Assembly (NCBI GenBank): GCA_035495255.1
Contig: DATJGD010000063.1
Span: 1-64,000, forward strand
Length of the DNA: 64,000 nucleotides
Reading direction: 5' to 3'
Origin: Bacteroidota bacterium
GTDB taxonomy: Bacteria > Bacteroidota > Ignavibacteria > UBA10030 > SZUA-254
Made by a program: the position numbers and the translations under genes. A model generated the notes under the pieces. It made no database searches. It was given only the letters and a program-made list of their open reading frames with translations, and was not told the origin of the DNA. This document shows positions 2,996 through 20,135 of the stretch, piece by piece; within the stretch, counting starts at the first letter, position 1; every line of letters begins with the position of its first letter.

Positions 2996-3534
2996 TATAA
3001 TGTTCCCTTCAGCAAGTCGTACGTCAGAAGAATCTTCCTGACACCAGTCGTAATCGCTCTGACTGAAATAGTCGCACCGCTGATGTTCTTGATGTCCTTC
3101 CCTGGTATCAGCTTGTCGGCCGAAGATTTGTCGCGGAACTGCCTCCGGAAAGACTCGTATGCCACTTCGCCTCCATAGGATTCGCGGTACGCTAAAATGT
3201 CGACATCCTGCACCTTGCCGTCGGTGTTTATCCCCGTGAGGTAGGTGATGAATTGGACCTTCCCTTTTACATCGTCGACAAATCCGTATCCCACGGTCTT
3301 CTGATGCGCTGAACATACGTAGACCTGCAGGGAATCGCGCTGCCATCTGCTGTGTGAGAGCCGTGCGATCGAATCTATCTCTGAACCAGACAGCCTTCGC
3401 CACGAAGAAGAGATGGCCGCTGAGTCTCCGAACATTTTGTGAAGTCCGGCTTTCGCCTTGTCTTCAATCGTCGATTGTCCCCGCGAGCTTGCTGCGAAGG
3501 CAATGAAACACAGGAAGCAGAGGAGCGATTTCAT
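2995..3534 (-). CDS. Secreted FMN-binding domain protein (FMN_bind; predicted ApbE flavinylation substrate)
   Basis: 179 aa with a signal peptide. The C-terminal motif DIKNISGATISVRAITTG matches the Dxx(S/T)GAT(S/T) flavinylation motif found in RnfG/NqrC/NosR-type FMN_bind domains. Confidence 0.65.
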   Translation of the reverse strand: MKSLLCFLCFIAFAASSRGQSTIEDKAKAGLHKMFGDSAAISSSWRRLSGSEIDSIARLSHSRWQRDSLQVYVCSAHQKTVGYGFVDDVKGKVQFITYLTGINTDGKVQDVDILAYRESYGGEVAYESFRRQFRDKSSADKLIPGKDIKNISGATISVRAITTGVRKILLTYDLLKGTL

Positions 3535-3536
3535 TC

Positions 3537-4646
3537 TCAGAAACTATATCCTATTCCGAAGTTCAGCTGTTTCGTGTTGACATCTGCGGCATTGTTGAAA
3601 AATTGATAGTCAATCTTAAACGCCGTGTTGAATGTCGGCTTGAAGGTAGCGCCGACGGTGGTGACATTCCGGTCGTAGAGCGGGTTTGCCGCAAATCCCG
3701 TGACTTTCGCCTGGGTATTGAATTTTTCGCAGCGGATAAACGGGGAGAGTGAAAATTCACTTTCGGCGCATAAGAGAGGCATCACGTCGTAGGCGCCTTC
3801 GATATAATAACCGTAGATCTGATCGGCGACATCGTTGCCATACACAGCGTTAATCTTGTCGGCGTCGCTGATGGCGGCAAAAGCGCCGACGGCCCGGAAC
3901 GTGAAACCGTTGGTGGAATACTGTGCATTGGCGGAGACGAGACCGACCGTCCCGCTTCCAAGCGCGGAATCACCTTCCGTTGTGCTGCCGACAAAAAACG
4001 AAGCGCCAAGCTTGAGGTCGGTGTTGGGTACGACATCGATGCGGCCTGTGATCGAGGGATTCATCGGCGAACTCTCGAGCGCTTCCTGGCGGCTTCCACG
4101 AAGGCCCTCTTCGCCGGACAAACCTTCAGCCCTGAGCCCCGCCATGGCGTATAATTGGTATGACGTGTTTTCCGCAAACGATCCGTAAATGCCTGCACCG
4201 GCTTCTCTCCACGTTGTCGGGATAACGACATCATCGACGCTGGGCCGTTCGACCCCGTTAAATGTCGGGGGCTCGTGGATTTGATTGATAACTCCGATAG
4301 GGGCAAGAATGATTCCGGCCTTCATCCCGAGATGTTCGGAAAAATGCCAGTCGAGGTATGCCTGCTCGATCGCGACCTCTCCTCCTTCAGCGCCGCCGGA
4401 ACCGGTCGCCTCGATCTTCGTGTGCTCAATTTCCACTTCCGACTTAAATGAAATCTTTTCATTAAACGTATGCCCCAGGTACAGGACGAACCGGTGAAAA
4501 TCGAGCGTTCCGCGGGCAGCCCCGTCCGGTTCATTGTAGTGCAGCTCGCCGTAGCCGCCGATGCTGGTGGTTTCCTGCGCGGAGGCAGCGAGAGTAAATG
4601 ACAGAGCGATGAACATGAGTGAAGTACGGCGTAGAAAGTTTTGCAT
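3537..4646 (-). CDS. Outer-membrane beta-barrel porin-like protein (start at MQNFLRR)
   Basis: It has a signal peptide ending ..AASAQ. The sequence shows an alternating amphipathic beta-strand pattern that is Gly/Ser/Thr/Tyr rich. The C-terminus ends in ..GIGYSF with an aromatic residue, as in OM barrels. Confidence 0.55.
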   Translation of the reverse strand: MQNFLRRTSLMFIALSFTLAASAQETTSIGGYGELHYNEPDGAARGTLDFHRFVLYLGHTFNEKISFKSEVEIEHTKIEATGSGGAEGGEVAIEQAYLDWHFSEHLGMKAGIILAPIGVINQIHEPPTFNGVERPSVDDVVIPTTWREAGAGIYGSFAENTSYQLYAMAGLRAEGLSGEEGLRGSRQEALESSPMNPSITGRIDVVPNTDLKLGASFFVGSTTEGDSALGSGTVGLVSANAQYSTNGFTFRAVGAFAAISDADKINAVYGNDVADQIYGYYIEGAYDVMPLLCAESEFSLSPFIRCEKFNTQAKVTGFAANPLYDRNVTTVGATFKPTFNTAFKIDYQFFNNAADVNTKQLNFGIGYSF

Positions 4647-11494: not shown

Positions 11495-12904
11495 TTGAGC
11501 ATTACATATTTTCTCGCACTGATGAAACTTCTCTTCTGCTCTCTCCTTCTGTCGTTATCGGTATCCGCCTATACCCAACAGGATTCAGTCCTTAATTTCC
11601 CTGTTCTGGATGCGATGGCAATTCACGCCGGCGATTCGGCACACCCGGTTGCGCTGGTGAATAATACCTCTTCAATGCTCCTGGGGGAGACAAACGCGTT
11701 GAGCCAATATGCGTGGGACGGATTCATCGTGGCAGGCCGCGAAATGATGAAAGACTATGCCTTTCAGATGGACGATCTGTCGCTGCGGCGGGACGAAGTC
11801 ACCGATGTTGTCGTGTCGCCGTATTCCCTGACACGGTTCTATCGTAATGGTGTTGAGGAAAACGTCTATTTTCTGGATTCGGTCAATGCGCTGGTTGTTG
11901 ACCTCAAGAACGCCCGCGGAAAGGGGCTGTCGGTTCATCCTTCGTTCAGCGGCGGAACACACGATATCGATTTCTCACCTCTGTTCGAGCTCAATGTGCT
12001 TATGATTTCAAGAACCAATCATATGGTCCGGACAACAAAGGAAGATTACCCGGCCACGGTCGCGTTGTCGTTTCTCAATGAACTTTACTCGGCTGCGGCC
12101 TTCTATGAATCTCAGCCGGTCGGTTCATACTTTTCTCCGGCATATATCAGCACGGTCAAGCAGGACACCCTGCACCGGCTTCTCATTACCGTCGGGGATT
12201 CTCTCAAGGATGCCTACGTTCGATTAAAGCGGGTTGCCAAGAATTTCGACCAGATCAAGCTCAACACGGATGCGCGACGGGCTGGGTTTATCTCGGCAGT
12301 ATCGCCCGCCACAGCAGATTCGACAACCCGTCTTGCCTTCTCATGGGCGGCGGCGGGATCTGCCGCGCTCTGGTCGGGCAAAGAGAATGTAAAATATCTT
12401 CAACAGCCCGCCGGGGCCGGGGCGCCTTCCATTCCGGGATCCGAACTTTTCTATCTCAACGGCGGGATGAACTATCTGCGCGCCTTGCTGGCACTTCAGG
12501 ATACCGACATAACCCGTTCGTCGTACGGTGAAATCCGGGGTTCATCGGCGTCCTCGTACGATGTTTCCGGCTGGTCCGTCCTCGCCATCGATCGATATGT
12601 GAGAGCCTCTGCAGACTCAGGGCTTGCGCGACAGCTGTATCCCTCCGTCCGCCGGACGATCGACGGGACGCTGCGCTACCGGGCCGAGCAGAACGGACAA
12701 CTAAAACACGCGTGCATGGATGGACAGTCTGTTTCTCTCTACGGAAGCGCAAAGAAAGGAAAAGCGGCGTATGCGGGGGCGCAGGCGGTTTGGCTTGCTC
12801 AGTTGGATGCCGGAATACGTCTGGGAATACGCACGGGCGACGCTGCGTCAGCCGATAAATGGAAAAAAATCCGGGGCCGTCTCGCAAAAAGCTTGAGCAT
12901 GTGA
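11495..12904 (+). CDS. Hypothetical secreted protein (469 aa)
   Basis: It has a signal peptide. I recognised no catalytic motif. Its stop is 3 nt from the PhzF start. Confidence 0.5.
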   Translation: MSITYFLALMKLLFCSLLLSLSVSAYTQQDSVLNFPVLDAMAIHAGDSAHPVALVNNTSSMLLGETNALSQYAWDGFIVAGREMMKDYAFQMDDLSLRRDEVTDVVVSPYSLTRFYRNGVEENVYFLDSVNALVVDLKNARGKGLSVHPSFSGGTHDIDFSPLFELNVLMISRTNHMVRTTKEDYPATVALSFLNELYSAAAFYESQPVGSYFSPAYISTVKQDTLHRLLITVGDSLKDAYVRLKRVAKNFDQIKLNTDARRAGFISAVSPATADSTTRLAFSWAAAGSAALWSGKENVKYLQQPAGAGAPSIPGSELFYLNGGMNYLRALLALQDTDITRSSYGEIRGSSASSYDVSGWSVLAIDRYVRASADSGLARQLYPSVRRTIDGTLRYRAEQNGQLKHACMDGQSVSLYGSAKKGKAAYAGAQAVWLAQLDAGIRLGIRTGDAASADKWKKIRGRLAKSLSM

Positions 12905-12907
12905 ATT

Positions 12908-13699
12908 ATGTCAGTCCCCATTTACCAGGTAGATGCGTTCGTTTCAGACCGAAAGTTTTCCGGCAATCCTGCGGGTGTATGCATTCTTCCGGAGAAAGCG
13001 GATGACGCGTGGATGCAAAACGTGGCGATGGAAATGAATGTCTCCGAGACGGCATTTCTCGTGAAACGCTCCGATGGTTACGATCTTCGCTGGTTCACGC
13101 CGTCGGTGGAAGTCGCGCTCTGCGGGCACGCGACACTGGCGAGCGCGCATGTGCTCTGGGAGACGGGCCAGCTCGGCAAGGAAATGCCCGCACGGTTTCA
13201 CACGAAAAGCGGATTGCTTACCGCTGAACGGAGGGAAGAATTCGTCGAGATCGATCTTCCCGCAGTAGTCGAAGCTGCTGAGACCCCTCCGCCGGAGCTT
13301 CTCATCGCTCTGGGTATCACCGCACAGTACGCCGGGAAAAACCGATTCGACTACCTTATCGAGGTTGAGTCTGAGAGCATTGTTCGCGGCATCAGGCCGG
13401 ATTTCACTACGCTTCGAAAGCTACCGGTACGCGGAGTCATGGTGACGAGCCGTTCTCAAGATCCGGCATATGATATTGTCTCAAGGTTTTTTGCGCCGGG
13501 GGCTGGAGTGGATGAAGATCCCGTTACAGGGTCTGCACACTGCTGCCTTGCACCATATTGGAGTGCAAAGCTCGGCAAGACTGAACTTGTTGCGTACCAG
13601 GCGTCGCCGCGTGGCGGAGTACTGCATCTGAAAGTTGCCGGCGACCGGGTCAAACTTGCAGGCACCGCGGTTACGGCGTTACGAGGAGAGCTGCTCTAG
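12908..13699 (+). CDS. PhzF-family isomerase (phenazine biosynthesis-like protein)
   Basis: 263 aa. The N-terminal block is typical of the PhzF/YHI9 family (IYQVDAF.. ..GNPAGV.. ..ETAF.. ..LRWFTP..E..LCGHATLA). Confidence 0.8.
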   Translation: MSVPIYQVDAFVSDRKFSGNPAGVCILPEKADDAWMQNVAMEMNVSETAFLVKRSDGYDLRWFTPSVEVALCGHATLASAHVLWETGQLGKEMPARFHTKSGLLTAERREEFVEIDLPAVVEAAETPPPELLIALGITAQYAGKNRFDYLIEVESESIVRGIRPDFTTLRKLPVRGVMVTSRSQDPAYDIVSRFFAPGAGVDEDPVTGSAHCCLAPYWSAKLGKTELVAYQASPRGGVLHLKVAGDRVKLAGTAVTALRGELL

Positions 13700-15097
13700 A
13701 CTACCCCGGTTCCCCAGTTTCCCACATCCCCACAACACCAGGCTCACGGCTAATCCGGGATACATCGGCTCAATGCCGAGGAGATACGTCCCGCTCCGGC
13801 CGGCAGCATAGCTTTCCAACAGCCACAGAAGCGAAGTAAGCCATCCACACAGCATGGAGTAAAAGGCGTACCGCGCCGGAATGTGCAATGCGGGAAAATA
13901 ACTTGCAATCAGCGGCACAAGCAATCCCGGAATGATGATCGTCCCAATCGTGTACCAGATGCTGATGACGCTGGGGAGGAGAAGCGCCAGAAGAATTGAA
14001 AACATCAATGAAAGGATGAGGCCTATCTTCGTAAGCCGCGTCGAAAGCACTTCAGGCTGGCTTGTCGTGACGGACAATCTCATGACAATATCCCTTCCCA
14101 GCGTTTGAGCAGAAACAAACGCGAGTGTATTCAGCGTCGACATGATCGTGGCAAGCATGCCAACATAAAACACCCCTTTGGCGAACGGGGGTAAGACCGC
14201 CTCTGCCAGCATGGGGTACGCCGTGACCGGATTGGCGAGGTTCGGAAGTGCAGCCCGCGCGTAGAGGCCGGCGGTCGCGGTCATAAAATCGAAAACACAC
14301 CAGAAAATTATTGAAACAAGAATGCCCCGCTGAGCGACCTTTCCCGATGACGCGGCGTAACAGCGTTGATGGAACGCCGGATCTACAAGCGTCCAGAGGG
14401 CGATGAAAAACCAGACGATGATAAACTGCATTGAGTTTCCGCCGTGCCACGTCAAATGGAGCGGGGGCAAATGCGCTTTCAGATAGTCGAACCCGCCGTA
14501 GGTCATAACAGCATAGGGAAGGATCACCGCAAATCCGACAAACATGAGAATAAATTCGACCACGTCGGTTTCGACGTCAGCCCGGAATCCGCCGGCGTAG
14601 AGGTACGATATTGCGGTGACGGCAGTAACGAGAAGACTGATCAACAAATTCCATCCGAACAACATTTGAATAAAGACGCTGAGCATAAGGATGTAGGGGG
14701 CCGGGGTCATGAGAATGAATGTCAACCCCGCACCGAGGACCGCAGTCCGCTTGTCGTACGACTGTGCGAGCTTGTCAGGAATGGAGAAGAGGTTCGTGGC
14801 CCGCACCTTCTTCGCCAGAAAGAAGGCGAACACGGCTGCGAAAACGTAATACGGGACTCCCTGAATCACCCAATTAGATATTCCGTACCGGTAGGAAAAC
14901 TCTCCCACACCAAGGATGCCCCCGTACCAGGTCGAGACGAGTGTCATGACAAAGACAGGGAGGGTGAGCGATCTTCCCGCAAGAAGAAAATCCTCCTCAT
15001 CCGCGCTGCTCTTTTTCACGGTTCGAAAACCGACGTACATCACGAGCCCAAAATAGAGTACGATGACGACAATATCCGCAGCAGCGAGGTGAATCAT
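13679..15097 (-). CDS. Sodium:solute symporter (SSS) family transporter, candidate ThiV-like thiamine/precursor importer
   Basis: It has about 13 TM helices and an SSS-family pattern. It is the last gene of the TPP-riboswitch operon, translationally coupled to TPK. Confidence 0.7.
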   Translation of the reverse strand: MIHLAAADIVVIVLYFGLVMYVGFRTVKKSSADEEDFLLAGRSLTLPVFVMTLVSTWYGGILGVGEFSYRYGISNWVIQGVPYYVFAAVFAFFLAKKVRATNLFSIPDKLAQSYDKRTAVLGAGLTFILMTPAPYILMLSVFIQMLFGWNLLISLLVTAVTAISYLYAGGFRADVETDVVEFILMFVGFAVILPYAVMTYGGFDYLKAHLPPLHLTWHGGNSMQFIIVWFFIALWTLVDPAFHQRCYAASSGKVAQRGILVSIIFWCVFDFMTATAGLYARAALPNLANPVTAYPMLAEAVLPPFAKGVFYVGMLATIMSTLNTLAFVSAQTLGRDIVMRLSVTTSQPEVLSTRLTKIGLILSLMFSILLALLLPSVISIWYTIGTIIIPGLLVPLIASYFPALHIPARYAFYSMLCGWLTSLLWLLESYAAGRSGTYLLGIEPMYPGLAVSLVLWGCGKLGNRGSLEQLSS

Positions 15098-15729
15098 GCC
15101 CGGGAGAACAGATAGAGAAGAAGCGTTCCTTTTCTTACGCTGACGGTGACGGCGGAGGAGGTAGCCTGGTTACTGATCCCTTCGCGCTTGCCGAGTTCCA
15201 GTGTTTCATTGTTCAGCGGATACAGGAGGTTGCGGGTTGTAATACCGGAACACCGGTCAAGGGGAATAAGAGAAATCTTTTGGCCTTTTTTCGCCTCGAC
15301 TTTTATTGTTCCGTGAACACGAAGAAGCATTCCATAGGCATCGTGAAAACGCAGTTCGATTCTTTCCCCAAATTCTTTAAAGCATCCGAGGCTCCCCGTT
15401 GCGTGATCGATCCGTTCCCCCAGCGCGCCGACGATGTCTGCCTGCCGGACGCCGCGACGCACACAAAACGAGATCGCCTTCTCCAGATCGGTGCTCTCCT
15501 GATCTTCAATAAGGACAATCGGTACGCGGGAAAAGTGTTTTTTTGTCGCGGGAGAAATAGAATCGAGATCGCCGAGAATGATATCGGGCTTCAGGCGTCG
15601 TTTGCGTGCCTTGTTCGCACCTCCGTCGGCACAGACGATGAGACCGGCCGCGGCAACCAGCTTGCTCAGGTTTGGTTGCGCGGGGAGAGGGCCGTTGGCG
15701 ATGATAAGAGCGGTCTTTGCACCTGGCAT
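15094..15729 (-). CDS. thiN: Thiamine pyrophosphokinase (thiamin diphosphokinase, TPK)
   Basis: 211 aa. It shows the TPK catalytic domain pattern (IIANGP.., CADGGAN.., GDLDS) and a C-terminal thiamin-binding domain. Confidence 0.7.
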   Translation of the reverse strand: MPGAKTALIIANGPLPAQPNLSKLVAAAGLIVCADGGANKARKRRLKPDIILGDLDSISPATKKHFSRVPIVLIEDQESTDLEKAISFCVRRGVRQADIVGALGERIDHATGSLGCFKEFGERIELRFHDAYGMLLRVHGTIKVEAKKGQKISLIPLDRCSGITTRNLLYPLNNETLELGKREGISNQATSSAVTVSVRKGTLLLYLFSRA

Positions 15730-15732
15730 AGG

Positions 15733-17973
15733 TTAGTACGTTACTGTTACGCCGAGCAGATAATTGCGCTCCGCGGCGGGGAAAAAGGAATCCGACTCGC
15801 CACTTGTGAAATACAAATTATTGAACAGATTCCTGACTTCTGCCCGGAGGTTCAACTTGACGCCAAACGCCTTCTCAATTGTGTAGAGGAGGCTGGCATC
15901 GGTGACGCCATACGCATCGTTCTTAGTACCCTTAAAATTATCAGTATAAAATTCTCCGACATACCGTCCTGCCAGTGAAGCCGTGAACTGTTCATCGCGG
16001 TACATCAGGCGAAGATTCGCCAGGAAGTCGGGAAACCCGGCGATAGGATTGTCGTCGAGGACCGTCAGTGTACCGCCTTCTATCACAGAAGACCGGATAA
16101 ACCTGTTGCGGGAGAGCGACAGGTTGCCGCCGAGCTCCAATCGATCGAACGGCTTGCACGAAGCCTCGATCTCCATTCCCAGGTGCCGGGTTCGCTCAGC
16201 GTTGCCGGTAACCGGCTGGCCGAAAATATCCACCTGCCCGTTGTTCACGAGCTCATCGGTGAATTCCATCCAATAGAGGTTGAATGTGAAACGATAGTTT
16301 GAAGCCGCTACGCCGAATCCAGCCTCGACGTCGAGAAGGTGTTCCGGATTCGCGAGAGGCTTGGAAAAATCGAACGTGACGGCGCCTCCCGTGGTGTCGG
16401 CTGCGAACTGCGGCGTGGCGCCGAAGTAGGAATCCTCCGCGGCATAGAGATTGCGAAGCCTCGGCTCGCGCGAGGTGTACCCGATCGAAAGATACGTATT
16501 CGCCTTTTCGTTTATGTTATAATTAACTCCAAGGCGGGGATTGGCAAAGAAATAAGAATAACTGAAATTGTTGCCGAGAAATTTTTCATTTGCAACGCCG
16601 TAGCGATTATGAATCATCTGAACGTCGGCGAGAATATTCGTCTGCTCCGAGACCCGGTATAATTCGTGCGCATAGAATGAGAAGATGTCTTTTTCACCGT
16701 TATACTCGTAGAAGTGATAGTCCGGATCGAGGTTTGGCGGCAACCCTTCGGCAAATTGTATCTTTCCCCAGTGCGTCGAGCGGTGAATTCTTGCTTCTGC
16801 GCCGACGATGAGTTTGCCGCTCGTGTGATCGATTTCAATCCGGGGAAGCCATCCGAACTGTTTGTTGCCGACGAACGCACGCACGAGAGTATTCCCGGGA
16901 TTTTGAGATGCCGGAATACCGTAGCTGTACCCGATGCGGAGCATTGACGTGTCGGCCCATGACGCATCGTAATCGAAATACCCGTCTCCGGTATAATAGA
17001 AGAACGTGTTGGCGAGGGTCAGGGCTGGCGCGATGTGCCACTCGTTGAGGAGCTCGTAATGAGGCTGTGAAAAACTTTCGGCTTCCTGGAGACGCCGTTG
17101 CTGGACAAACGAATATGCCGATCCTGTCGAGTCAGTCTCCCATGCGGCGAGATTCTGCCGGCGCAGCGCAGGATCGTCGTTGACGAACTTCGGGAGCCCT
17201 GTGTACGCCAACCCGTCGGTCAGCGGGCCACCGAAAAAATGTATCCTCGTTGTCATATCCTTGTCGTAACGGACCGCACCTAAAAAATACGAATTAAGCT
17301 CAACCCACGAGTTCTCCCGGTAGCCGTCGCTGAGAATTTTTCCGAGCCTGCCATAAAAAAGATAGCGCTGGCCGACAAGCCCGGAGTTGAAGGTGGCGCC
17401 AAACTTCCGGGTAGTGAGGGCCGTTGCCTTGTCGCCATATTCCTGAAATCCGAATATCGATTCCAGAGAGACAGACGGGTTCAGCTCGAACGGGCTGGAA
17501 ATGAGATTCACCGATCCGCCGATCGCGGGGGGGCCGTAGAACGCGCTGCCGGCCCCGCGCTGGACCTGGATGCTTCCGGTGCTCGCAAGGAGATCCGGAA
17601 AGTCGATCCAGTAGACGTTGTGATCCTCAGGATCATTTTGCGGAATGCCGTTCACCATGACGGACAACCGCCGCTGATCGAACCCGCGCAGGTTGATATA
17701 ATTGTAGCCGATCCCGTTTCCATTCTCCGAGTAATAGGTAATCGACGGAAGCTCGGAAAGCAAGAGTGGAATGTCTTGAACCGAATACCTTGTCTTCAGC
17801 TGTTCGCCGTTGAGATTCGAAAAAGTTGCCGGCGTTTCCCGCTCGCGCGCCTCGACCGGGCTGATGGTCACTGTGGGGAGGGCGTAGACTGTGTCACGGG
17901 ACGTCGTTGTGGTATCCTGCGATCGTGCAGCAGAGGCCGGGATGAGGAACAGCAGTACAAGCAAGATCTTCAT
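15733..17973 (-). CDS. TonB-dependent outer-membrane receptor, candidate thiamine receptor
   Basis: 746 aa. It has a signal peptide, a TonB-box-like TVTISP, a plug domain and a 22-strand barrel. It lies directly downstream of the TPP riboswitch. Confidence 0.85.
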   Translation of the reverse strand: MKILLVLLFLIPASAARSQDTTTTSRDTVYALPTVTISPVEARERETPATFSNLNGEQLKTRYSVQDIPLLLSELPSITYYSENGNGIGYNYINLRGFDQRRLSVMVNGIPQNDPEDHNVYWIDFPDLLASTGSIQVQRGAGSAFYGPPAIGGSVNLISSPFELNPSVSLESIFGFQEYGDKATALTTRKFGATFNSGLVGQRYLFYGRLGKILSDGYRENSWVELNSYFLGAVRYDKDMTTRIHFFGGPLTDGLAYTGLPKFVNDDPALRRQNLAAWETDSTGSAYSFVQQRRLQEAESFSQPHYELLNEWHIAPALTLANTFFYYTGDGYFDYDASWADTSMLRIGYSYGIPASQNPGNTLVRAFVGNKQFGWLPRIEIDHTSGKLIVGAEARIHRSTHWGKIQFAEGLPPNLDPDYHFYEYNGEKDIFSFYAHELYRVSEQTNILADVQMIHNRYGVANEKFLGNNFSYSYFFANPRLGVNYNINEKANTYLSIGYTSREPRLRNLYAAEDSYFGATPQFAADTTGGAVTFDFSKPLANPEHLLDVEAGFGVAASNYRFTFNLYWMEFTDELVNNGQVDIFGQPVTGNAERTRHLGMEIEASCKPFDRLELGGNLSLSRNRFIRSSVIEGGTLTVLDDNPIAGFPDFLANLRLMYRDEQFTASLAGRYVGEFYTDNFKGTKNDAYGVTDASLLYTIEKAFGVKLNLRAEVRNLFNNLYFTSGESDSFFPAAERNYLLGVTVTY

Positions 17974-17990
17974 AATTGAGGAATACGTAG

Positions 17991-18030
17991 TTGAAAATAA
18001 AAATGCCGTTCTCAGAGCAAAGAAAACGGC
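17991..18030 (-). terminator. Intrinsic terminator forming the riboswitch expression platform
   Basis: The minus strand reads GCCGTT(TT)CT-ttgctctg-AGAACGGC followed by ATTTTTATTTT. It lies between the aptamer and the receptor ATG at 17973. Confidence 0.6.
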
Positions 18031-18035
18031 ACGAA

Positions 18036-18135
18036 TTTTCTCCGTTTTCCTACGCTGGCATGATCCAGATCAGGTTTCCAGGGTTTTTCTCAGCCTCCCG
18101 ACGATTCGGGAGACACCCCTAACGGCTACACGAAA
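18036..18135 (-). ncRNA. TPP (thiamine pyrophosphate) riboswitch aptamer, THI-box
   Basis: The minus strand reads GCCGTTAGGGGTGTCTCCCGAATCGTCGGGAGGCTGAGAAAAACCCTGGAAACCTGATCTGGATCATGCCAGCGTAGGAAAACGGAG. This contains the canonical CUGAGA, ACCC and ACCUGAUCUGGAU(A/C)AUGCCAGCGUAGGA blocks, with the P1 stem formed by CCGTT/AACGG. Confidence 0.85.
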
Positions 18136-18289
18136 ATATAGGAGAATGAACGAAGGAATGCAAGTTGACTTTCCATAACCCCGTGATTATATTGGTTGTG
18201 CAAAACCGCAGCATGCCTGTCCCGGGAATGAACATTCATAATCTATCCAATCACGCGCCTTCACGCGCGCAACAAAAAGGAGAATCGCC

Positions 18290-18721
18290 ATGTCCATGAT
18301 GAAAGAGTTCAAAGAATTCGCGATGAAAGGTAATGTCGTCGACCTGGCTGTCGGCGTCATTATCGGCGCGGCATTCGGCAAAATCGTAAGCTCTCTCGTT
18401 GCTGATGTCCTCATGCCTCCGATCGGCATGGTCATGGGCGGCCTGGATTTCAGCGATCTCGTGATCACGCTGAAAGAGGCAATCGGAACGGCGCCGGCTG
18501 TCGTCGTGCGATACGGTGTCTTCATCAATACGATCATCGACTTTATCATCGTCGCGTTCTGTATCTTCATGATGATCCGGACAATGAACAGGATGAGAAG
18601 GAAGGAAGCAGCGCCGGCGGAAATCGCCTCTCCGACATCCAAAACCTGTTCCGAATGCATGATGGTTATCCCCATCGGCGCAAAACGCTGCGGACACTGC
18701 GGCGTGGAATTGCGGTCGTAA
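18290..18721 (+). CDS. mscL: Large-conductance mechanosensitive channel MscL with an atypical C-terminal zinc-ribbon (CSEC..CGHC)
   Basis: The N-terminal 110 aa are nearly identical in pattern to E. coli MscL ([35 protein letters not shown]). The C-terminus carries CxxC-x11-CxxC. An AAGGAG SD is present. Confidence 0.85.
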
Positions 18722-18767: not shown

Positions 18768-20135
18768 ATGAAATATTTTATCGGTTGTACGTTACTACTG
18801 CTTCTGCTTCTGGCGCCGTTGAACGCCCAGATCAAGAAGGAAGGACTCGGCGGCGGTGTCGGTATCGGCGGGACGGTTGCGAATACCGATCTCAAACAAG
18901 GAAAGACTGAATTATTCGGAAGGGCGTTTCTGCGCTATCCTCTCGTGAATCACATCGAAGGCGACTTCGGCGCCGGCATCGGCGAAGTTCGCAGCGAAGT
19001 ATTTCGTACGCGCATCATTCCCTTCGATTATCGCTTTGTCATCAGCCCGTTCGAGTTCGAGAGCTGGAATCCTTACCTGTATGCAGGCGCGGGAGTTCTT
19101 CGTTTCGAGGTCCTGGATCCGCCGGCTGTGAGTAACGGAGACAGGCCTCAGGCGTGGACGGGAATGTTCCCCGCAGGCGTCGGCGCGCAATTCAAGATTA
19201 ACGATCAGCTTCTGTTCGAAATGAGCGGCGGCTACAACCAGACGATGACGGACGATCTCGACGCCGTCAAGACCGATCACAAGGATGGATACTGGAATTT
19301 CCTCTTCGGACTAACTGCCACCGGCGTCGGCCCGGACCGCGATCCGGATAAAGACGGCCTCCTCAATGACGACGAAAAGCAGTTGGGGACGGATCCGAAC
19401 AATCCCGATACGGACGGCGACGGACTTTCGGACGGCGATGAGGTAAATGTGTATCACACAAACCCTCTGAAGCCCGACAGCGACGGTGACGGCCTGAATG
19501 ATGGCGACGAAGTGAAAAAGCACAAGACCGATCCCAACAAAGCTGACACCGACGGGGACGGCCTGAAGGACGGCGAAGAGGTGATGAAGTATACCACCGA
19601 TCCTCTGAAAGCCGATACGGACGGCGACGGTTTGAAGGATGGCGAGGAAGTGAATCAGTACAAGACTGATCCGCTCAAGGCCGACACAGACGGCGGCTCC
19701 GTGAACGACGGGACAGAGGTCGCGAACAAGACGAATCCCCTCGATCCAAGCGACGATGTTCCGAAGAAGAAAGAAGAGTTCCAGACTGAGGTCGGAAAAG
19801 CGATCGTTCTCGACGGCATCGTGTTCAAATCCGGCAGCGCCGAAATCACCTCCGAATCGGAAGATATCCTGACGAAAGCATACAACACGCTTGAGCAGAA
19901 TCCCGAAATCGAGGTGGAAATCGACGGGCATACCGACAATTCCGGCAGGCATGCATCCAACATGAAGCTTTCACAGAACCGCGCGGATGCTGTGAAGACA
20001 TGGCTCACCGGAAAAGGCATCGCGGCTTCAAGGATCACAACGAAAGGATTCGGCCCGGACAAGCCGATCGCTTCGAACAAGACCGCCGAAGGAAAGCAAA
20101 AGAACCGGCGCATCGAGTTCCTGCGTACAAAATAA
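18768..20135 (+). CDS. OmpA-family outer-membrane protein with thrombospondin type-3 repeats
   Basis: It has a signal peptide and an N-terminal barrel. Seven or more DxDGDGLxDGxE TSP3 repeats follow. The C-terminal OmpA domain shows GHTDNSG..SQNRADAV..NRRIEF. Confidence 0.85.
   Translation: MKYFIGCTLLLLLLLAPLNAQIKKEGLGGGVGIGGTVANTDLKQGKTELFGRAFLRYPLVNHIEGDFGAGIGEVRSEVFRTRIIPFDYRFVISPFEFESWNPYLYAGAGVLRFEVLDPPAVSNGDRPQAWTGMFPAGVGAQFKINDQLLFEMSGGYNQTMTDDLDAVKTDHKDGYWNFLFGLTATGVGPDRDPDKDGLLNDDEKQLGTDPNNPDTDGDGLSDGDEVNVYHTNPLKPDSDGDGLNDGDEVKKHKTDPNKADTDGDGLKDGEEVMKYTTDPLKADTDGDGLKDGEEVNQYKTDPLKADTDGGSVNDGTEVANKTNPLDPSDDVPKKKEEFQTEVGKAIVLDGIVFKSGSAEITSESEDILTKAYNTLEQNPEIEVEIDGHTDNSGRHASNMKLSQNRADAVKTWLTGKGIAASRITTKGFGPDKPIASNKTAEGKQKNRRIEFLRTK

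Follow-up and report, generated by a model that had tools for sequence, protein, structure and literature searches.

The 64,000-nt stretch of DNA analyzed in this study (contig DATJGD010000063.1, positions 1 to 64,000; hereafter referred to as the window) carries on its minus strand a TPP riboswitch aptamer followed by a hairpin and a U-rich tract, all located in front of a three-gene operon. Our reading of this arrangement, to which we assign a probability of roughly 0.8, is that of a terminator-type OFF riboswitch heading a thiamine-uptake operon, which encodes (i) a TonB-dependent receptor, (ii) a thiamine pyrophosphokinase (TPK) and (iii) a ThiV-like symporter. The analysis established directly that the aptamer belongs to the TPP family, that the hairpin with its U-run is present and conserved, that an alternative pairing exists within the leader, and which genes the operon contains.

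Identification and conservation of the TPP aptamer

Analysis with Rfam cmscan placed a TPP riboswitch aptamer (THI element, RF00059) at positions 18130..18030 of the minus strand. The score of this match was 71.7 bits, which exceeds the gathering score of 54.3, the threshold against which a preliminary description of this DNA had proposed to check such an element. Over the 64-kb window as a whole, the E value was 3.8e-12; the match spanned model positions 1-105 (of 105), and zero non-canonical pairs were flagged in the alignment, all of whose helices are canonical. This was the sole Rfam match within the window.

The THI-box blocks on which the preliminary description had relied (CUGAGA, ACCC and ACCUGAUCUGGAUCAUGCCAGCGUAGGAA), as well as a P1 helix formed by CCGUU/AACGG, were all located by reading the minus strand, whose sequence between 18140 and 17970, given as the reverse complement, is UAGCCGUUAGGGGUGUCUCCCGAAUCGUCGGGAGGCUGAGAAAAACCCUGGAAACCUGAUCUGGAUCAUGCCAGCGUAGGAAAACGGAGAAAAUUCGUGCCGUUUUCUUUGCUCUGAGAACGGCAUUUUUAUUUUCAACUACGUAUUCCUCAAUUAUG. 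The 5′ strand of P1 (CCGUU; 18121..18125) was defined by the cmscan alignment, and its 3′ strand (AACGG; 18046-18042) by the sequence together with that alignment. The sole deviation from the consensus is the missing optional P3a stem of the Rfam model; E. coli thiM, which is likewise devoid of P3a, has the same minimal form. By its family membership, the element is classified as a canonical TPP riboswitch.

The blocks that contact the ligand (CUGAGA and ACCUGAUCUGG...GCGUAGG) are intact in the window and invariant across an alignment of 51 orthologous aptamers. Following the solved thiM and thiC structures, we take CUGAGA to be the pyrimidine pocket, and ACCUGAUCUGG with GCGUAGG to be the pocket for pyrophosphate and Mg. 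The integrity and invariance of these blocks argue against the very improbable case in which the switch would respond to another thiamine-related compound (thiamine, TMP or an HMP-PP-like precursor) instead of TPP. Such a specificity might be favored by an operon that serves uptake and phosphorylation rather than synthesis, and variants with a changed ligand preference are known from other classes of riboswitch. However, a permissive Rfam scan of positions 17900-18300 returned TPP again as the only meaningful match: neither a second or tandem aptamer nor a terminator-embedded HMP-PP motif was detected in this region, and the only other entry was a chance-level match to ybhL (E 7.2). The predicted ligand is TPP itself.

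The conservation of the aptamer was analyzed among relatives of the receptor gene that follows it. These relatives number thousands in metagenomes, and 556 were confirmed in species-representative genomes; the best 80 of these 556 share 53-69% identity and all come from Ignavibacteria, Ignavibacteriota, Bacteroidota or Chlorobiaceae MAGs. In 78 of these 80 loci the aptamer is located directly upstream of the receptor gene, and the remaining two end at a contig edge. These 78 aptamers were located with our own covariance model, built from 51 leaders of receptor relatives, which scored the window aptamer at 88.3 bits.

Standard pairs were present in 94.6% of the cells across 79 orthologous aptamers, compared with 59% or less in controls with slid partners. 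Double-sided changes were found at 15 of the 23 pairs, and none of 500 shuffles matched the observed values, although the alignment used for these counts had been fitted to the model and is biased towards its structure. An RNAalifold consensus computed on the first alignment failed to recover P1, because the sequence of this helix is nearly invariant; for this reason we introduced P1 manually and evaluated it by counting pairs. Over the 79 sequences, 86% of the cells in the P1 columns pair, and the outermost pair shows CG-to-UA double changes. A three-way junction composed of P1, P2/P3 and P4/P5 is thus backed by covariation within these alignments.

The region of the aptamer is overlapped on the plus strand by a 95-aa ORF (17891..18178), which raises the question of a coding region, a chance match or a decayed relic in place of a functional aptamer. 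With an E value as low as the one given above for a 64-kb window, and a covarying aptamer retained at the same position in 78 related loci, we consider such an origin of the signal to be practically negligible. The ORF itself was rejected as a coding sequence: no protein family matched it (best E 0.087), and it extends into the receptor gene in antisense orientation.

An additional GC-rich hairpin (GGCGC...GCGCC) was observed within the aptamers of several related loci (L067, positions 3715-3867; L068, positions 3711-3825; similarly in L053, L063 and L074). It is inserted between ACCCU and ACCUGA, i.e., at the P2/P4 junction, and not at the usual position of P3a.

The predicted terminator and antiterminator

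A terminator scan identified one site only on the minus strand, an intrinsic-terminator hairpin at 18032..18003 with 11 pairs (5 of them G-C) and an 8-nt loop. The arms of its core are GCCGUUUUC (18030-18022) and GAGAACGGC (18013-18005), which enclose the loop 18021-18014, and its tail, TTTTATTTTC / UUUUAUUUU, follows directly. Folded in isolation, the hairpin has an energy of -16.1 kcal/mol. The U-rich tract AUUUUUAUUUU (minus strand, 17994..18004), defined from the sequence and the terminator scan, is interrupted by one A and is hence imperfect. This hairpin and U-run are those noted in the preliminary description; the distance from the end of the U-run to the receptor ATG, given there as 18 nt, is in fact 20 nt (17994 to 17973).

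The leader contains a switching sequence, GAAAACGG (minus strand, 18042..18049), the last five bases of which constitute the 3′ strand of P1. Read from 18049 to 18042, this segment can pair without a mismatch with CCGUUUUC (18029-18022), in the 5′ arm of the terminator. The resulting antiterminator comprises 8 perfect pairs, or up to 10 when G-U and A-U pairs are added, and its hairpin alone folds at -10.4 kcal/mol. In these models, the antiterminator can coexist with neither P1 nor the terminator.

For nascent RNA that ends before the terminator 3′ arm (18130-18014), the minimum free energy (MFE) structure is the antiterminator (-37.7 kcal/mol), and the fold in which the aptamer is closed by P1 reaches -35.7 kcal/mol. 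These nascent folds are only 2 kcal/mol apart, and ligand binding could therefore plausibly tip the balance between them. The MFE structure of the full leader combines the aptamer and the terminator (-49.5 kcal/mol, compared with -46.1 kcal/mol when the antiterminator is forced). Since this full-length structure contains the terminator even without ligand, and P1 consists of 5 pairs only, the switch must be kinetic and may be leaky.

The following sequence of events, a classical kinetic OFF design, would account for these structures. Transcription would be initiated from a TTGCAT-17-TATATT promoter, about 3 nt ahead of P1. At low levels of TPP, 18049-18042 would pair with 18029-18022, and the antiterminator, having formed first, would occupy the 5′ arm of the terminator and permit RNA polymerase to read into the operon. 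When TPP is bound, the aptamer would close P1 and hold the switching segment; the hairpin 18032-18003 could then form before the U-run, and transcription would be predicted to stop about 20-30 nt before the start codon of the receptor gene.

Conservation of the expression platform

A hairpin with a U-run of -11 kcal/mol or better was present between the aptamer and the ATG in 78 of 78 leaders (all those with an assignable start codon, the window included), with a median of -20 kcal/mol; in the shuffle control this value was reached by 7 of 156 sequences (4.5%). In most of the terminators, the 5′ arm is GCCGUUU(U)C and thus complementary to the P1 3′ strand. Five or more bases of the terminator 5′ arm are paired with the aptamer 3′ tail in the nascent MFE structures of 66 of 77 leaders. 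The modeled energies of the antiterminator duplex across the loci show a modest excess over those of shuffled arms (-11.8 versus -9.2 kcal/mol), and this comparison lends weak support to the antiterminator.

Judged from the leader sequences, the terminator/antiterminator platform is a conserved trait of the receptor family and no peculiarity of the window. The P1 sequence CCGUU/AACGG is also for the most part retained throughout the clade, probably owing to the need to match the terminator arm as well. The OFF switch acting by termination, as envisaged in the preliminary description, is accordingly supported computationally by the hairpin and U-run that follow the aptamer, the 8-bp antiterminator that shares the P1 3′ strand, the nearly balanced nascent folds, and the presence of the hairpin with its U-run in every leader, set against 4.5% of the shuffled sequences.

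The alternative that has to be weighed most carefully is that of a genuine TPP sensor acting mainly on the initiation of receptor translation, or on both transcription and translation. In such a case, TPP-dependent refolding would alter access to the A/U-rich stretch preceding the AUG, and the hairpin with its U-run would be a structural element, not a terminator. The TPP riboswitches of transport operons in B. thetaiotaomicron are indeed reported to act on translation and not on transcription, and those of gut Bacteroidetes are located on average 21 nt from the start codon (10.1101/867226). In the window, moreover, UUCCU, which lies shortly before the AUG, is paired with part of the aptamer 3′ tail in the MFE structure of the full leader. 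A Shine-Dalgarno sequence is apparently not used here, the stretch before the AUG being UUCCUCAAUU.

Three features argue against translational control. Firstly, the AUG is left uncovered by the hairpin, whose end lies 29 nt ahead of it. Secondly, the aptamer lies more than 60 nt from the AUG in the window (median 83 nt in the 78 leaders), which corresponds to the class, separated from the start codon by more than 40-50 nt, that is reported to act transcriptionally (10.1101/867226). Thirdly, a U-run directly follows the hairpin in 78 of 78 leaders, and this would be needless for translational control. We therefore regard a translational switch as rather unlikely and favor transcription termination.

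A different arm of the terminator was noticed in one sub-clade. In its leaders (L008, L009, L022, L023, L030, L040, L050 and L076, and also L016, L028, L033, L035 and L044; about positions 3900-4000, upstream of the receptor gene), the 5′ arm is UUCCCGCGCCGG and not GCCGUUUUC. By eye, UUCCCGCGCCGG appears complementary to the conserved aptamer core sequence CCAGCGUAGGGAA (the 3′ strands of P5 and P4), and not to P1, a pairing that would represent a second antiterminator design within this receptor family. The nascent folds show no more than a pairing of this arm with the linker or the 3′ part of the aptamer in most loci of the sub-clade.

Probable promoter and transcript start

Two hexamers resembling promoter elements were recognized in the minus-strand sequence upstream of the aptamer: a −10-like TATATT at 18135..18140 and, 17 nt upstream of it, a −35-like TTGCAT at 18158..18163. 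They probably constitute a sigma-70-like promoter (TTGCAT-17-TATATT), which would place the start of the transcript near 18128. A promoter scan returned no minus-strand promoter at its threshold, because TTGCAT matches TTGACA at only 3 of 6 positions.

Of 69 leaders, 34 (the window included) have the motif TTGnnn-N16-18-TAnnnT at an equal distance from the aptamer, and many related loci keep (G)TATATT 19-23 nt ahead of the P2 sequence GGGGUG. The conserved upstream signal is a sigma-70-like TTGC(A/T)T-17-TATATT. The Bacteroides-type promoter TAnnTTTG was also considered, and gave only scattered single matches upstream of the aptamers.

In more distant loci (L014, L025, L027, L031, L049, L051, L053-L057, L059 and L062-L078), the TATATT box is located about 30 nt further upstream, and is followed after 8-12 nt, before P1, by a conserved GTTCTTT which is not found in the window. 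These elements fall within the region 20-50 nt upstream of the aptamer.

Genes of the downstream operon

The first gene of the operon (minus strand, 15733..17973) encodes a TonB-dependent outer-membrane receptor of 746 aa with a signal peptide, assigned on the basis of Pfam matches to Plug (61 bits) and TonB_dep_Rec_b-barrel (92 bits). None of the NCBIfam equivalogs for siderophore or B12 receptors reached its cut-off for this protein. In the public (JGI) annotation, the receptor (gene call P0001) is shorter, at 712 aa, with its start placed 34 codons further downstream; translated from the ATG at 17973, the 746-aa form includes the signal peptide MKILLVLLFLIPASAA and aligns with its homologues from residue 1.

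The second gene (minus strand, 15094..15729), which starts 3 nt past the receptor stop codon, encodes a thiamine pyrophosphokinase (TPK/ThiN/Tnr3) of 211 aa. It matches TIGR01378 (151 bits, cut-off 76.4), PF04263 and PF04265. The third gene (minus strand, 13679..15097) overlaps the TPK stop by 4 nt and encodes a sodium:solute symporter (SSF) family protein of 472 aa (PF00474, 102.6 bits), which we describe as ThiV-like. Its best specific NCBIfam model is PanF (TIGR02119), with 100 bits against a cut-off of 328; this score rules out PanF itself and indicates a paralogue.

From the domain content of its products, the operon is predicted to provide outer-membrane uptake, inner-membrane uptake and the conversion of thiamine to TPP. 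These genes form a logical regulon for a TPP sensor.

The order receptor-TPK-SSF is kept in most of the 80 related loci. An SSF match is missing in 20 of the 80, all among the more distant ones, some of which end soon after the receptor gene. In one distant relative (L074), a PnuC-family transporter (PF04973) is present in place of the SSF protein, and the order is receptor-TPK-PnuT. In another locus (L006), a TenA/THI-4-family gene (PF03070, E 1.2e-11; plus strand, positions 3009-3908) is inserted downstream of the riboswitch and its terminator and ahead of the receptor gene, and adds a pyrimidine-salvage enzyme to the regulon.

Comparison with known systems

The aptamer has the same elements as the E. 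coli thiM and Bacillus subtilis tenA and thiC leaders, namely P1, P2-P3 with the CUGAGA bulge, and P4-P5 with its two conserved blocks. The expression platform resembles that of the terminator-coupled tenA and thiC leaders, in which the P1 3′ strand is likewise shared with the antiterminator, and a hairpin and U-run follow. In contrast to these three systems, the window riboswitch precedes an uptake operon and not a biosynthetic one, occurs in an uncultured Ignavibacteria/Bacteroidota-type lineage, and has a short P1 (5 bp).

A counterpart with respect to gene content is the OMthi-pnuT-tnr3 operon, which is controlled by a TPP riboswitch, is widespread in gut Bacteroidetes and has been studied genetically (Costliow & Degnan 2017, PMC5613172); TPP-riboswitch OMthi/pnuT/tnr3 operons of Bacteroidetes are also the subject of a later preprint (Costliow et al. 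2019, bioRxiv 10.1101/867226). Both this operon and that of the window combine a TPP riboswitch with genes for a TonB-dependent receptor, an inner-membrane transporter and a TPK. They differ in two respects: (i) the third gene of the window, as in most of the 80 loci, encodes an SSF protein (PF00474) and not PnuT (PnuC family, PF04973), and (ii) the window leader is long and bears a conserved terminator, whereas the average distance in gut Bacteroidetes is the 21 nt mentioned above.

The symporter can be compared with ThiV. Comparative genomics has revealed THI elements in front of genes for outer-membrane receptor homologues (omr) and for the PanF-like symporter thiV (PMC2211319), and ThiV is listed as a transporter of B1 or of pyrimidine (PMC6593275, PMC10881298, PMC11452348). 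As in ThiV, the window protein belongs to the SSF family, is nearest to PanF among the named models and is encoded in an operon led by a TPP riboswitch. In SAR11, ThiV is encoded by a single riboswitch-proximal gene and is thought to import the pyrimidine precursor HMP (PMC11452348). The window symporter gene, in contrast, stands third, after those of the receptor and TPK, which suggests intact thiamine as its substrate.

The riboswitch class, the type of expression platform and the type of operon are therefore all known. The differences lie in the detail: a new host lineage, the SSF symporter that replaces PnuT, and the consistently long, terminator-bearing leader in the receptor family. We lean slightly towards the view that these features together reflect a displacement of PnuT by an SSF protein beside an OMthi-like receptor and a TPK in an Ignavibacteria/Bacteroidota-type lineage, with the operon switched off by a conserved P1-coupled terminator rather than by the translational mechanism of the Bacteroides type. 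If this is correct, the ThiV-type symporter is predicted to carry intact thiamine and not HMP, and the related loci would offer a clean natural set of about 80 TPP platforms of the terminator type, covering two or more antiterminator designs.

Knowledge of riboswitch mechanisms is left unchanged by these results, whose practical value is in annotation. Through the riboswitch, the receptor, TPK and symporter can be recognized as a thiamine-uptake regulon of an uncultured lineage; without it, annotation would label the receptor an "iron complex outer-membrane receptor" and give the symporter no more than a generic name. The functional prediction extends to a large family of TonB-dependent receptors (the 556 confirmed genome relatives), which are probable components of thiamine uptake. 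The name given to the receptor by JGI, "iron complex outermembrane receptor", is contradicted by the riboswitch context.

Neighboring genes

The mscL gene (plus strand, 18290..18721) is divergent from the operon. Downstream of it, the region 18768-20135 of the plus strand encodes an outer-membrane protein of 455 aa, composed of a beta-barrel, four bacterial TSP3 (calcium-binding) repeats and an OmpA domain, an architecture that fits an Ignavibacteria/Bacteroidota-type origin. A 469-aa ORF without a Pfam or NCBIfam match (plus strand, 11495-12904) is located beside a PhzF-family gene.
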